From: Octopus vulgaris
Taxonomy: Eukaryota
Direction: 5' to 3'
DNA: 64,000 nt
NCBI GenBank assembly: GCA_951406725.2
Contig: OX597827.1
Span: 84,506,001-84,570,000 of the forward strand
Made by a program: the position numbers and the translations under genes. Below, piece by piece: positions 13 through 61,239 of this stretch. Position 1 is the stretch's first letter, and each line of letters starts with the position of its first letter. The notes beneath the pieces are model-generated. The model saw only the letters and a program-made list of their open reading frames with translations. It ran no database searches and was not told the DNA's origin.

Positions 13-91
13 TAGCAAACCAAATGGCGGTGCCCCAGCATGGCCACAGCTCATTAGCTGAAACTGGAAAATCAAAATCAATCAAAATCAA
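13..91 (+). mobile_element. Extreme 3' end of LINE subfamily A (3' UTR motif plus ATCAAA-type tail)
   Basis: TAGCAAACCAAATGGCGGTGCCCCAGCATGGCCACAGCTCATTAGCTGAAACTGGAAAATCAAA is the exact reverse complement of ~1845-1907, the 3' end of the RT-bearing copy. It runs directly into (TA)n. Confidence 0.85.
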
Positions 92-1821
92 TATATATAT
101 ATGTATATATATATGTATATATATATGTATATATATATGTATATATATATGTATATATATATATATGTATCTATATATATGTATCTATATATATGTATCT
201 ATATATATGTATATATGTATCTATATATATTATATATATATATATATGTATATATATATGTGAATATATATGTATATATATATGTGAATATATATGTATA
301 TATATATATATGTATATATATATGTATATATATATATATATATATATATATATATATATATATATGAATATATATGTATATATATATATATATGCCTGGG
401 CCAATAATATATATGTATATATATATATATATGAATATATATGTATATATATATATATGTATATGTATATATATATGTATGTATATATATATGTATGTAT
501 ATATATATGTATGTATGTATATATATATGTATGTATATATATATATATATATATATATATATATATGTATATATATATATATATATATATATATATGTGT
601 ATGTATATATATATATGTGTATGTATATATATATGTATGTATATATATATATATATATATATATATATATATATATATATATATATGTATATATATATGT
701 GTATATATATATATATATGTATATATATATATGTATATATATATATGTATATATATATATATTATATATATATATATATGTGTATATATATATGTGTATA
801 TATATATATGTATATATATGTGTATATATATATGTATATATATATATATGTATGTATATATATGTGTATATATATATATATATATGTATATATATGTATG
901 TATATATATATATATATATATGTATGTATATATATATTTATATATATATGTATATATATGTATGTATATATATATTATATATATATATATATATATGTGT
1001 ATATATGTATATATGTGTATATATGTATATATATATATATGTATATATATGTATATATATATATATATATATATATATATTATATATATGTATATATATG
1101 TATATATATATATATATATATATGTGTATATATGTGTATATATGTATATATATATTTATGTATATATGTATGTATATATGTATATATATATATATATGTA
1201 TATATGTGTATATATGTATATATATATTTATGTATATATGTATGTATATATATGTATATATATATATATATGTATGTATATATATGTATATATATATATG
1301 TATGTATATATATATATATATATGTATATATATATATATGTATATATATATATATATATATGTATATATATATATATATATATATATATATATATATATG
1401 TATATATATATATATATATATATATATATATATATATATATATATATATATATATATATATATATATATATATATATATATATATATATATATATATATA
1501 TATATATATATATATATATATATATATGTATATATATATATATGTATATATATATATGTATATATATATATGTATATATATATGTATGTATATATATATG
1601 TATGTATATATATGTATGTATATATATATGTATGTATATATATATGTATATATATATATGTATGTATATATATATGTATGTATATATATATATGTATATA
1701 TATATATATATATATATATATATATATGTATGTATATATATATGTATGTATATATATATGTATATATATATATATATGTATGTATATATATATATATATA
1801 TATATATATATATGTATATAT
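92..1821. repeat. Imperfect (TA)n microsatellite with TG interruptions, ~1.7 kb
   Basis: Direct reading; source of the I/Y/V/C/M pseudo-ORFs. Confidence 0.98.
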
Positions 1822-3064
1822 TTGATTTTGATTTTGATTTGACTTTGATTTTCCAGTTTCAGCTAATGAGCTGTGGCCATGCTGGGGCACCGCCATTTGG
1901 TTTGCTACACGGTTTTACCTCACGGATGCTTTTTAGCAAACGCCATCTGATGCATGAGAGAGTTCGATGCAGCTGCCCTCATCTGCGGCTCCAGCCGTGA
2001 AGTTGGTTCATCCGGGACACCTGACAGGAAGAGATCCAGTCCTACTTTAAAGACATCCGCATCTACACCATGCAGGCCCCTCAGGTTCTTCGGGAGGATA
2101 TTGAAGAGCCGTGGGCCTCTGAAGCCCAGGCTATAAAAATATCTTGTCCTACATCTTGATGGCAAATTTGGAGTCCTTTGTACTACGCAGTGGCGTCCGG
2201 TTCTGGCATTTGTGTGACTCTCGATACCAAAGTTTGGGACAAGTCCTTCCAGGATCTTCCAGATATATATTATGGCATATCTTTCTCGCCTACGCTCCAG
2301 GGAATAGAGCTTTAATCTCTTGAGTCTCTCCCAGTAGCTCATATGCTGCACAGAGGCTATCTTCTTCGTGTAGCTTCGTTGGATCGCCTCAAGTTCTGTG
2401 ATCAACTTGACACTGGATGGTGACCATAGCTGAGAGCAATAGTCAAAGTGGCTTAGGACAAGTGTCTTCCAGAGGACCATCATGGTTTCTTGTTCTCTTG
2501 TTCTAAAGGTTCTAAGAATCCATCCAGCCAGCCGTCTACATTTCATTGTCAGTTTAGCAACATGTACATGAAAGGTCGCGTCATCACTCATGTGAATACC
2601 CAGGTCACGCACTGATTGTGCCTCTGGGATTGCAATCCCTCCGGGTCCAGTGTATTCCTTGGGTATTGCATTCAGTTTTGCATGCTGATAGTATAAAGCT
2701 TGAAACTTTTCAGCATTGAACTGCTATATCGGAAGTGGCCCCATTGGTTGCTACCATCTGACTTCTCCTATTCTTCAGAAAGTCATGAAGCCATTCTTCC
2801 TAGTTTTCCAATCCAAGTATGCCAAGATCAGCAGTGTGTGACATATCATTCCATGATTGACTTTATACAGTCTCCCTATGCGAAGTCAAGATATATGACT
2901 TCCACATTTGAGTGGTTGAGCAGTTGTTTCAGCACCCAGTCATGGTGCTGCATATGAGTATAGTTAAGGCAGCTATCTTCCTGGTCGGAAACCATGTTGG
3001 GTGTCAGGCAGCAAGTCATTTTCTTCAAGGAAGGTGATTAGTTTCCTGTGTATTCTGACTATTC
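1822..3064 (-). mobile_element. 5'-truncated CR1/L2-group LINE, subfamily A (RT C-terminus plus 3' UTR; internal deletion and degraded 5' part)
   Basis: ORF 1920-2612(-) reads [43 protein letters not shown]. Frameshifted remnants such as [10 protein letters not shown] lie near 2980-3010. Tail is (ATCAAA)n at 1822-1850. Confidence 0.92.
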
Positions 3065-5210
3065 GTGTGTGTGTGTGTGTGTGTGTGTATGTGTGTATGA
3101 ATAGGTGTGTGTGTCTTGTGTGTGTGTGTGTGTGTGTGTATATATGGTGTGTGCTATATATATGTATACATATATATATATATGTATATATGTATATATC
3201 TATGTATATATGTGCTCTTATGTATACTTTCTGATATATGATATATGTATATATATATAGGACTTTATATTATATATGTATATATATATGTATATATCTA
3301 TATGTATATATATATGATATGTCATATATATCTGATATATATATCTGTTAAATATATATATATTATATTATATATATGTATATATATATCTTATATTATA
3401 TATATATGTATATATATATATGTGTGTGTATATATATATATATATATATGTATATATATATATATGTATGTATATATATATATATATATATATATATATA
3501 TATATATATGTATATATATATATATATATATATATATATATATATATATATATATATATATGTATATATATGTATATATATATATATATATGTGTATATA
3601 TATATATGTATATATATATATATGTGTATATGTGTGTGTATATATATATATATATATATATATATATATATATATATATATATATATATATATATATATA
3701 TATATATATATGTATATATATATATATATATATATATATATATATATATATATATATATATATATATATATATATATATATATATATATATATATATATA
3801 TATATATATATATATATATATATATATATATATATATATATATATATATATATATATATATATATATATATATATATATATATATATATATATATATATA
3901 TATATATATATATATATATATATATATATATATATATATATATATATATATATATATATATATATATATATATATATATATATATATATATATATATATA
4001 TATATATATATATATATATATATATATATATATATATATATATATATATATATATATATATATATATATATATATATATATATATATATATATATATATA
4101 TATATATATATATATATATATATATATATATATATATGTGTGTGTGTGTGTGTGTGTGTGTGTGTTATATATATATATATATATATATATATATATATAT
4201 ATATATATATATATATATATATATATATATATATATATATATATATATATATATATATATATATATATATATATATATATATATATATATATATATATAT
4301 ATATATATATATATATATATATATATATATATATATATATATATATATAAATATATATATATATATATATATATATATATATATATATATAAATATATAT
4401 ATATATATATATATATATATATATATATATATATATATATATATATATATATATATATATATATATATATATATATAAATATATATATATATATATATAT
4501 ATATATATATATATATATATATATATATATATATATATATATATATATATATATGTGTATATATATATATATATATATATATATATATATATATATATAT
4601 ATATATATATATATATATATATATATATATATATATATATATATATATATATATATATATATATATATATATATATATATATATATATATATATATATAT
4701 ATATATATATATATATATATATATATATATATATATATATATATATATATATATATATATATATATATATATATATATATATATATATATATATATATAT
4801 ATATATATATATATGTATATATATATATATATATATATATATATATGTATATATATATATATGTATATATATGTATATATATATATATATATATATATAT
4901 ATATATATATATATATATATATATATATATATATATGTATATATATATATATATATATGTATATATATATATATATATATATATATATATATATATATAT
5001 ATATATATATATATATATATATATATATATATATATATATATATATATATATATATATATATATATATATATATATATATATATATATATATATATATAT
5101 ATATATATATATATATATATATGTATATATATATATATATATATGTATATATATATATATATATATATATATATATACATATATATATATATATATATAT
5201 ATATATATAT
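3065..5210. repeat. (TG)n/(TA)n microsatellite block, ~2.1 kb
   Basis: Direct reading. Confidence 0.97.
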
Positions 5211-59459: not shown

Positions 59460-59770
59460 TTTTGACACAATGTCCACTGTAAGTGGGAGATAGTAGCAAA
59501 TAACTATACCAGGTTTGCTATGTTTGCACTTTGAAGAAGTTCTGATGGGAGCGTCCCACTAACGTTTCTTGTTTTGATAGAAGTATTCAATATGGAGGAC
59601 ATTATTCCAGAGTCGTCTTTCCTACGGACGGCATTGTGTATTGTTTTAGTAATATCAATATGCCACAAAAGCGGATGGGACCTTGATGACATTTTTGGAC
59701 AGCTGCTGATCACGTGTGAGATGTCTTCCACAGAAATGGAATTCTATCGATATTTTCGGTGGCATTTTGT
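59460..59770 (-). mobile_element. Old Dong/R4-like remnant (CCHC knuckle plus start of RLE)
   Basis: [18 protein letters not shown], then in another frame [18 protein letters not shown] (NKPDIV-like). Confidence 0.6.
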
Positions 59771-59924
59771 GAGTTTAAAGGCTTCACACAATTATTTGTC
59801 TTGCCGGTTTGTGTGTGTGTGTGTGTGTGTGTGTGTGTGTGTGTGTACATATATCTGTAAATATATAAACCCGTATGCATATAACTATATGTGTGTGGTG
59901 TGTGTGCGTGCATGTGTGTGCGTA

Positions 59925-60454
59925 TGTGTATATATATATATATATATGTGTATATATATATATATATATATATATATATATATATATATATATATATATA
60001 TATATATATATATATATATATATATATATATATATATATGTGTATGTATATATATATATATATATATATATATATATATATATATATATATATATATATA
60101 TATATATATATATGTATATATATGTGTATATATATGTGTATATATATGTGTATATATATGTGTATATATATATATATATATATGTGTATATATATGTGTA
60201 TATATATATATGTATATATATGTGTATATATATGTGTATGTGTATATATATGTGTATATATATATATGTATATATATATGTGTATATATATGTGTATATA
60301 TATATGTATATATATATATATATGTGTATATATATATATGTTATATATATGTGTATATATATGTGTATATATATATATGTATATATATATGTGTATATAT
60401 ATGTGTATATATATATATATGTATATATATGTGTGTATATATATGTATATATAT
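59925..60454. repeat. (TA)n/(TG) microsatellite
   Basis: Direct reading. Confidence 0.96.
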
Positions 60455-61239
60455 ACTCTTTTACTCTTTTACTTGTTTCAGCCATCCGGCTGAGGCCATG
60501 CTGGGGCACCGCCCTTGTTGCTACCCTCTCTAAGTCCAGTTTGCCGTGGCTGGCCACTGATCTAAGAGAGAGTTTGTAGCTGCTGCCCTTAGGTTACCTT
60601 CGTACCTTGCAGTGGGTTCATCTGGGATCCCGGAAAGCAGCTTGTCTAGATGTTTTTTGAAAATGTCCACATCCGCATCATGTAGATCTCTTAGTTTTCT
60701 TGGCAGTTTGTTGAAAAGCTGAGGGCCCTGAACCCCAGGCTATTACAGTATCTGCTCCTTACCCTGGATGTGGAAGACGGGACCTTTGGCACCACACAGT
60801 GACGTCCTGTACGGGGATTGGAACAGCTCTCAATTCCAAAATTTGGTGCTAGTCCCTCCAGGATTTTCCATATGTATATCACTGCATATCTCTCTCGTCT
60901 TCGTTCCAAGGAGTACAAATTGAGTTCCCTAAGCCTCTCCCAATAGTTCTTTTCTTTCATGGTGGAAATCCTCTTGGTGAAATGTCTTTGGATTGTCTCA
61001 AGCTCTGTGGTTAGTTTGACACTATGCGGTGACCACAGTTGGGAGCAGTAGTCCAGGCGGCTTAGGACAAATGTCCTCCATAGTGTCAACATGATCTCGC
61101 AGTCTCTTGTCCGGAATGTCCTCAGGATCCAGCCAGTGAGTCGTCTGCACATTGTCGCCACCTTCGCGATGTGTGAAGAAAAAGATGCATCGTCACTCAT
61201 GTCTATCCCCAGGTCCCGTATTGATTTTGATACTGGGAT
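60455..61239 (-). mobile_element. LINE subfamily B, 5'-truncated young copy embedded in (TA)n
   Basis: Near-identical to 7108-7893, with only a handful of substitutions and one 1-bp deletion seen; same AGTAAAAG tail. Confidence 0.95.

Follow-up and report, generated by a model that had tools for sequence, protein, structure and literature searches.

LINE copies with CR1-group-like anatomy adjoin (TA)n arrays at their 3′ ends in a window of the Octopus vulgaris genome

The window, by which we mean the whole 64,000-nucleotide stretch of Octopus vulgaris contig OX597827.1 that was analyzed, carries ten LINE copies or fragments related to types A, B, C and D, together with TA-type arrays and one control copy. 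Coordinates below are positions within the window, and arrays are given without a strand.

13..91, plus strand: A-type copy, a 79-bp 3′ remnant with two hairpins and an AAAATC/AATC tail
92..1821: interrupted (TA)n between tail-to-tail A copies, with G interruptions on the plus strand throughout
1822..3066, minus strand: A-type copy, 5′-truncated, degraded and internally deleted at 2724-3066, with (TG)n at its 5′ end
3067..5211: compound array, (TG)n then (TA)n, contacted solely by two 5′ ends
5212..7893, plus strand: B-type copy, near full length, with a AAAAGAGT tail
7894..8740: interrupted (TA)n between B and A, tail-to-tail
8741..10410, minus strand: A-type copy, 5′-truncated, with an AATC tail, flanked by TA on both sides
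10411..11735: (TA)n array contacted solely by one 5′ end
30747..31222, plus strand: control, a distantly related CR1-type copy that ends in a TAAC tail and is flanked by TAAAT left and right
33780..33836: short (TA)n adjoining the RT fragment at its 5′ end
33837..34124, plus strand: internal part of an RT, similar to A/B/C (64% aa to P0002), without a 3′ end
51874..51904: short TA-type array adjoining the 3′ end of C
51905..52296, minus strand: C-type copy with an A-rich tail, its 5′ end joined to D
52300..52528, plus strand: D-type copy without a clear tail of its own, its 5′ end joined to C
52529..52559: short TA array that adjoins both D (at its 3′ end) and A (at its 5′ end)
52560..52912, plus strand: A-type copy, 5′-truncated, with an AAAGAT tail
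52913..53000: TA array of 88 bp
55021..55048: (TA)14 without interruptions, adjoining the 3′ end of D
55049..55840, minus strand: D-type copy, frameshifted, with a (TACA)/(CA) array on its 5′ flank
59929..60455: interrupted TA array adjoining the 3′ end of B
60456..61239, minus strand: B-type copy, 5′-truncated
61240..63663: interrupted TA array of 2.4 kb, whose polarity and TGTG motif match the array across the B copy

In the near-full-length B copy, a degraded APE remnant is located at ~5236-5872 by tblastn, and an open RT frame at 6079-7827 contains a Pfam match to RVT_1. The copy begins ~25 nt before the APE match and is degraded and possibly truncated, which bears on the question of an ORF1. 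A 69% homolog, P0002, carries PF14529, PF03372 and RVT_1, and all five homologs inspected contain only APE and RT families, with no RNase H or extra domain; the partial P0004 has no APE. Tails are clear tandem repeats in A and B and A-rich in C, and are absent in both D copies, which stop at the identical base and continue directly into TA. The 3′ end folds into two hairpins with 93% of cells paired and five pairs showing two-sided change among only nine related rows, and none of 500 shuffles reaches its paired-cell score.

A lengthened APE hairpin has a role in the specificity of L1, R1 and TRAS1. The APE of P0002 has a short T-to-D spacing, as in unrelated homologs, and thus no lengthened specificity hairpin is visible; a search of the APE against PDB sequences returned no retrotransposon endonuclease. 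The APE+RT ORF, short tandem-repeat tails, 3′ stem-loops and heavy 5′ truncation are shared with the CR1 group (CR1, Zenon, L2, Rex1), and the octopus elements are likely CR1-group-like, a label that comes from anatomy and characteristic motifs. Unlike CR1-group LINEs, they are tied strongly to (TA)n. Zenon, as characterized in the available part of its description, has a poly-A tail and no ORF1 (bioRxiv 2026.01.13.699120), whereas no poly-A tail of this kind was found in the octopus elements.

An earlier note on this DNA had united the four subfamilies in a single clade. A and B do form one clade with Argonauta proteins (support 100/99), and C falls inside it in a quick tree, but D is a separate deep lineage outside this clade, and a single clade of all four is disfavored at AU p=0.04. 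The trees were built from homologs that lack Repbase or Dfam clade names (CR1, L2, Zenon, Crack). That A-D have the two-hairpin 3′ end in common was not accepted as evidence of one clade, since the first of these hairpins also forms at the 3′ end of L001, a relative without a TA flank. Since D stands apart from A/B/C, the TA association occurs in two separate lineages, and would be either convergent or an ancestral bias that comes to light where a genome has very much (AT)n.

All nine 3′ ends cited earlier as adjoining (TA)n (91, 1822, 7893, 8741, 51905, 52528, 52912, 55048 and 60455) proved to be real element 3′ ends, each 0-5 bp from a TA-type array. In the window, 0.20 of non-element positions lie ≤10 bp from such an array, which yields a binomial probability of 5e-7 for nine of nine, uncorrected for the choice of the window. 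The corresponding value for the short-array 3′ ends (n=4, two of them from one fused pair) is 6.5e-5 against a background of 0.09. These probabilities, and the same junction type in reads and contigs of other samples at other loci, speak against the reading, which we consider very improbable, that no real preference exists and that the pattern reflects coincidence in TA-rich DNA, better survival of copies inside arrays, the choice of the window or faulty assembly at repeats. In favor of this reading, the window was flagged for exactly this pattern, its TA background is 20%, two copies beside long arrays are partly degraded, and more than 10% of a squid genome consists of (AT)n according to the available part of one report (PMC9068888).

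Two elements named earlier as lying outside (TA)n do so. The distantly related CR1-type copy has no TA array nearer than 1.8-2.3 kb, and the element at 24452, previously called a Dong, adjoins (TAA)n and has no Pfam match. The flanks of the CR1-type copy resemble what we take to be a split SINE. This copy and three hammerhead-core remnants are found 206-2269 bp from TA. Two further elements, at 11733 and 53001, adjoin TA arrays.

Elements of the R1/Tx1 type show the same target at both junctions; here TA is present at nine of nine 3′ ends and at five of ten 5′ ends by a strict count (5211, 10410, 52560, 61239 and ~33837). The five 5′ ends listed in the earlier note are real, but they are a favorable subset of the ten, and its statement that most 5′ ends adjoin TA comes down to half of them by the strict count. 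The 5′ end at 3066 adjoins (TG)n with the nearest TA 88 bp away, that at 55840 adjoins a (TACA)/(CA) array, the C and D copies are fused 5′-to-5′ at ~52296-52300 without TA, and the copy at position 13 has only ~10 bp of TA-like sequence on its 5′ side, at the window edge. The D copies have no strict TA 5′ junction (0/2). The right end of the RT fragment (34124), which is not a natural 3′ end, lies 289 bp from TA. Two possible TSDs, 13 and 20 bp long, did not exceed what chance would give, with null fractions of 0.08 and 0.17.

All six arrays longer than 500 bp in the window adjoin an element copy. This would fit the main rival explanation, in which host nucleases cut the cruciforms of long interrupted TA arrays and the breaks prime LINE cDNA, the APE contributing nothing special; in human cells, according to the available part of one study (PMC12018271), long interrupted TA repeats form cruciforms that are cut by ERCC1-ERCC4 or MUS81. 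The presence of the pattern in two separate lineages, the fused C/D pair and the two other elements at arrays are also in its favor. However, the arrays at five of the ten copies measure only about 28-90 bp, the control CR1-type copy and the hammerhead-core remnants are away from TA, and the 3′ side is always TA while the 5′ side is sometimes TG or CA. We consider host breakage an unlikely source of the pattern.

The arrays seem to predate the insertions, a reading that is supported for A/B/C. The G/C interruption polarity of arrays is independent of element orientation, as evident by the two B copies (99.35% identity over 774 bp), of which one has a G-type and the other a C-type sense flank, and which have only 5 nt of 3′ flank in common. 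In a set of 12 windows, the left and right flanks of the B copy at 60456-61239 resemble each other more closely than either resembles any of the rest (cosine 0.96). Four arrays (3067-5211, 10411-11735, 33780-33836 and 61240-63663) are contacted by 5′ ends only. In eight of nine junctions the first interruption lies ~2-12 nt beyond the tail, as expected from an interruption density of ~1 per 10-15 nt in arrays, and therefore little TA appears to have been copied from RNA; in three junctions a G or C follows the tail by 2-4 nt. Array polarity, the 5′-only arrays and the non-TA tails support the view that A/B/C went into arrays already present and did not seed them, as the earlier note had proposed. 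Seeded microsatellites repeat the element's own tail, occur at the 3′ end only and have fixed polarity, a combination that A/B/C do not show. That the tails simply seeded the arrays is thus improbable for A-C; for D the case is less clear.

A broader alternative is that transcripts end in or read into (UA)n, and that this stretch anneals to TA DNA at a nick or adds TA with every insertion. Such RNA-end guidance or seeding is improbable overall and most plausible for D, given the common stop of both D copies directly before TA and the lack of strict TA junctions at the D 5′ ends. Head-to-tail copies linked by a tail and a short TA run exist at other loci, CR1-L3 seeding is documented in snakes (PMC6050309) and RNA 3′ repeats have been proposed as guides of RTE sites (PMC6007223), both according to the available parts of these sources. 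The opposite polarities and short common flank of the sister B copies, the three junctions with an early G or C, and the 5′-only arrays argue against it.

With slightly better than even confidence, we favor the view that A-D copies entered existing arrays by target-primed reverse transcription, following a nick by their own endonuclease, which is predicted to prefer alternating-TA DNA. The earlier note likewise proposed an APE that would prefer (TA)n, perhaps as an extruded cruciform, and arrays that would serve as a putative safe haven. The predicted nick would fall inside an interrupted TA array, the RT would grip the two-hairpin 3′ end, and the final 1-3 bases of the tail may anneal to the strand that carries the nick, a mode known from CR1/L2/RTE junctions. 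Both strands of this palindromic repeat would be usable, and hence both orientations and tail-to-tail clusters would result. What is preferred is probably a shape of the DNA or a high density of TpA steps, and not a fixed site. Target-primed entry into arrays sits less easily with strict TA at only half of the 5′ ends, TSDs at chance, the lack of a lengthened APE hairpin and the two other elements at arrays.

Dong, Kibi, Koshi and Waldo are microsatellite-specific non-LTR elements. Mino, of the R1 clade, is specific for AC repeats (PMC3124438), and the available part of the account by Kojima and Jurka (PMC4640811) describes Togen (TG) and some HERO families as microsatellite-specific, places target-specific families mostly in the early-branched, Tx1 and R1 groups, and reports target specificity of APE-type LINEs mostly for the R1 and Tx1 clades. 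Like these elements, the octopus copies lie inside a dinucleotide repeat, most exactly at the 3′ junction. In contrast, the known elements belong to other clades, use other repeat units and in some cases another endonuclease type, and the octopus comparison is one of junctions. MuTAnT, which targets TA microsatellites (PMC4486113), and SaTar (PMC5907723) are likewise microsatellite-targeting, with unrelated copies clustered in one array, but, as far as the available parts of these reports describe them, they are plant Mutator-like DNA transposons and not retrotransposons. In snake CR1-L3, CR1-type 3′ ends also lie beside an abundant microsatellite; according to the available part of that report (PMC6050309) the repeat is the element's 3′ tail, whereas A/B/C have other tails, TA at 5′ ends too and element-independent polarity. 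A full-text literature search, which did not extend to Repbase and Dfam entries, found no report of (TA)n insertion for this LINE class.

If true, a CR1-group case in two lineages would represent an independent origin of preference and a compact, single-ORF-like system for studying how an APE gains it, and would tie transposable elements to the exceptionally high share of (AT)n in cephalopod genomes, as given in the available part of PMC9068888. A more far-reaching and doubtful version is that two octopod CR1-group lineages each evolved a TA- or hairpin-recognizing endonuclease without a long specificity loop, and that insertions help arrays to grow, feeding coleoid (AT)n. Because APE elements in gene-insertion use are listed as random integrators in the available part of PMC13708176, one with a bias toward repeats would be attractive in practice.

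Material from other loci was thin: raw-read runs placed 5, 32 and 0 reads, contig joints are the listed ones, 623 loose ends fell outside the listing, and C and D 3′ loose ends were left out. Five raw reads from other samples run from an AAAT tail into TA, four have TA ahead of a 5′-truncated copy, and two contig joints have TA ahead of truncated A and D copies. At one contig joint an A 3′ end has a non-TA linker, a 45-contig AATC-tail consensus shows no clear run into TA, and a 109-contig consensus has an agreement of 0.54. No empty-site joint was among those listed, at very thin coverage; the continuity of the arrays gives indirect support to a target that was there beforehand. Of 49 metagenome loci with enough 3′ flank, two have a TA 12-mer within 500 bp (0/2 for the same wider lineage), a control of little weight, as contigs assembled from short reads end where such arrays begin. 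The metagenome scan (1 of 64 parts) gave no close relative among the best 80 of 479 relatives (25-47% identity). In viral contigs, the 3′-end motif had no matches and an alignment scan found a single 61-aa piece. The 47 matches of the motif in genome contigs, all in bacteria-titled records, were taken as chance, and Rfam matches of TA repeats to miRNA models, among 150 of 282 matches listed, were set aside as below the gathering score.

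The window DNA is AT-rich, animal in character and packed with microsatellites, and its longest RT frame (6079-7827, protein P0001) resides in the B copy at 5212-7893. The closest named homologs of P0001 are Argonauta hians proteins (60-63% identity), which points to an octopod cephalopod as the source, and its top homolog overall is P0002, a 984-amino-acid protein (69% identity) whose Pfam content is an APE (PF14529, PF03372) plus an RT and no further family. The B copy aligns to P0002 from the APE region onward, with a degraded 5′ part. Self-BLAST and tblastn yield ten LINE pieces: four of type A, two of type B, one of type C, two of type D and an internal fragment. 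The two B copies are 99.35% identical. LINE parts beside long arrays (5212-6078 and 2724-3066) have decayed strongly and show a surplus of TA steps, in contrast to the almost intact remainder; this is likely due to assembly consensus error.

As proposed in the earlier note, all nine 3′ ends adjoin a TA-type array, each within 0-5 bp. The background for this test is 20% of non-element positions, long flanking arrays included, and the binomial probability of 5 × 10⁻⁷ ignores the selection of the window. The four 3′ ends at short arrays give 6.5 × 10⁻⁵ versus a 9% background. The companion claim that most 5′ ends also lie at TA holds strictly for 5 of 10, the others being an end at 3066 that adjoins (TG)n, an end at 55840 that adjoins a (TACA)/(CA) array, the head-to-head joint of C and D near 52296-52300, and a piece starting at 13, the window edge. 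If any alternating purine-pyrimidine tract is accepted, the count is 7 of 10 versus a 26% background. The CR1-type control (30747-31222, +) does lie outside (TA)n, as had been stated; for this copy and for three hammerhead-core remnants the distance to TA is 206-2269 bp. Two further elements (11733, 53001) do adjoin TA arrays. The hammerhead-core-like motifs, found by pattern match, are probably Penelope remnants:

24364-24396 (-), hammerhead-core-like motif
48976-49001 (-), hammerhead-core-like motif
57084-57107 (-), hammerhead-core-like motif

Such an association could arise by insertion into arrays or by their seeding. The tails of A and B are tandem repeats of their own (AATC, AAAATC, AAAGAT, AAAAGAGT) followed by TA, the C tail is A-rich and then enters TA, and D has no clear tail. 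Because the arrays carry strand-specific interruptions, their polarity can be compared. Array 92-1821 has G interruptions on the + strand over its entire length, despite the oppositely oriented A copies that face it. The sense flanks of the two B copies are G-type versus C-type, with only 5 nt in common. The B copy at 60456-61239 has flanks of equal polarity that are mutual best matches among 12 windows (cosine 0.96); the flanks of the A copy at 8741-10410 reach 0.94, yet many unrelated pairs likewise exceed 0.9. Four arrays are touched by 5′ ends only. In eight of nine junctions the first interruption occurs ~2-12 nt past the tail, in agreement with interruption density. This early interruption, together with array polarity and continuity, fits insertion into pre-existing arrays with little TA copied from RNA. 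The TA association is real and strong, and entry into existing arrays most likely underlies it. Guidance by the RNA end, or seeding, is a doubtful general explanation, although D, with strict TA 5′ junctions in 0 of 2 cases, may have seeded its arrays. A search for TSDs produced candidates of 13 and 20 bp, neither of which exceeds chance. All six TA arrays longer than 500 bp touch a LINE copy, and the longest copy-free array is ~300 bp (91-11735, 59929-63663); arrays may grow after insertion.

Anatomy, junctions and polarity are the observed part of the mechanism, and the TPRT steps are inferred. TPRT would start where one or the other strand of an interrupted TA tract is nicked, and the tail would pair over 1-3 nt with the target. 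Short overlaps of this sort are described for CR1, L2 and RTE (PMC6007223). We lean toward the element's own predicted APE as the origin of the bias for three reasons: five of the ten copies lie at arrays shorter than ~90 bp, remnants of other retroelements avoid TA, and only the 3′ side has TA invariably. These same features make it unlikely that host breaks at TA cruciforms, a process described in PMC12018271, supply the entry sites. For the APE reading, however, no hairpin mechanism like that of site-specific APEs is visible in P0002, whose T-to-D spacing is short and equal to that of other homologs.

The single clade envisaged for A-D was not recovered. A tree built on the C-terminal part of the ORF unites A and B with P0002, the homolog P0003 and two Argonauta proteins in one clade (100/99), and a quick tree of 110 rows places C and a third Argonauta protein within it. 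D clusters with the homologous proteins P0150 and P0196 (97/96) and falls outside a branch supported at 98/99. A tree that forces it into the A/B clade is 25.6 log units worse (AU p=0.04); since D is a long branch, its separateness rests on moderate evidence. The TA association most likely spans two lineages. In A, B, C and D alike, the 3′ end forms two hairpins and continues with GAAAC, and five pairs show two-sided change. This structure was rejected as a bond uniting A-D, because in a metagenome relative (L001, 41% identity) the first hairpin forms in the same way at 4715-4800, with a G-G mismatch, although neither its 10-nt tandem tail nor its flank is TA; the RNA motif thus predates the TA habit.

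Raw reads of three runs and contigs of one set, all from other samples, were compared with 51670-52935; these thin data are mostly concordant. In X23, five reads that leave an A end pass through an AAAT tail and then reach TA, and four carry tail plus TA ahead of a 5′-truncated copy; the two sets may be one locus. Two contig joints in X1 place TA ahead of truncated A and truncated D copies. Counting against a TA rule are one joint whose linker at the 3′ end of an A copy is not TA, an AATC-tail consensus of 45 contigs with no clear run into TA, and an A-rich 109-contig consensus (agreement 0.54). The joints listed omit 623 loose ends and the rows at C and D ends, and no empty site occurs among them in these thin data. 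Distant metagenome relatives have TA near the 3′ end in 2 of 49 usable loci and in 0 of 2 from the same wider lineage, a control biased by short-read assembly. We regard the absence of any real preference as improbable given the nine 3′ junctions.

Target-specific families belong mostly to early-branched, Tx1 and R1 groups, according to Kojima and Jurka (PMC4640811). Other papers report AC repeats as the Mino target (PMC3124438), microsatellite targeting by plant Mutator-like DNA transposons (PMC4486113, PMC5907723) and some CryptonV (PMC8869645), microsatellite seeding by snake CR1-L3 (PMC6050309), and shrimp TEs that carry microsatellites (PMC7878876). The term-matched passages of a CR1-group survey (bioRxiv 2026.01.13.699120), a mollusc TE survey (PMC10294476) and a cephalopod genome paper (PMC9068888) make no mention of a TA preference. 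Full-text literature searches found no description of a CR1-group LINE that targets TA; Repbase Reports and most subscription papers, which may contain such a note, lie outside their scope.

At 51905-52528, C (-) and D (+), from distant lineages, meet 5′-to-5′ with ~4 nt between them and both 3′ ends in TA, which may reflect two insertions primed from opposite strands at a single break, or else a deletion that came later. A 361-bp unit repeated 2.1 times (97% identity) immediately follows a TA array at 11733-12499 and presumably resembles a Penelope-type terminal repeat. The element end at 24452-25197, a putative ‘Dong’, has (TAA)n on one side and a (TTG/TTA)n run inside, and a Pfam search of it gave no match. 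Nested, MITE-like inverted repeats occupy 54453-54967 and 54102-54182, with 119-bp arms at 89% and an inner 145-bp palindrome. Two minisatellites were also located:

43942-44548, minisatellite with a 25-bp unit, 96% match
51298-51661, minisatellite with a 24-bp unit, 92% match
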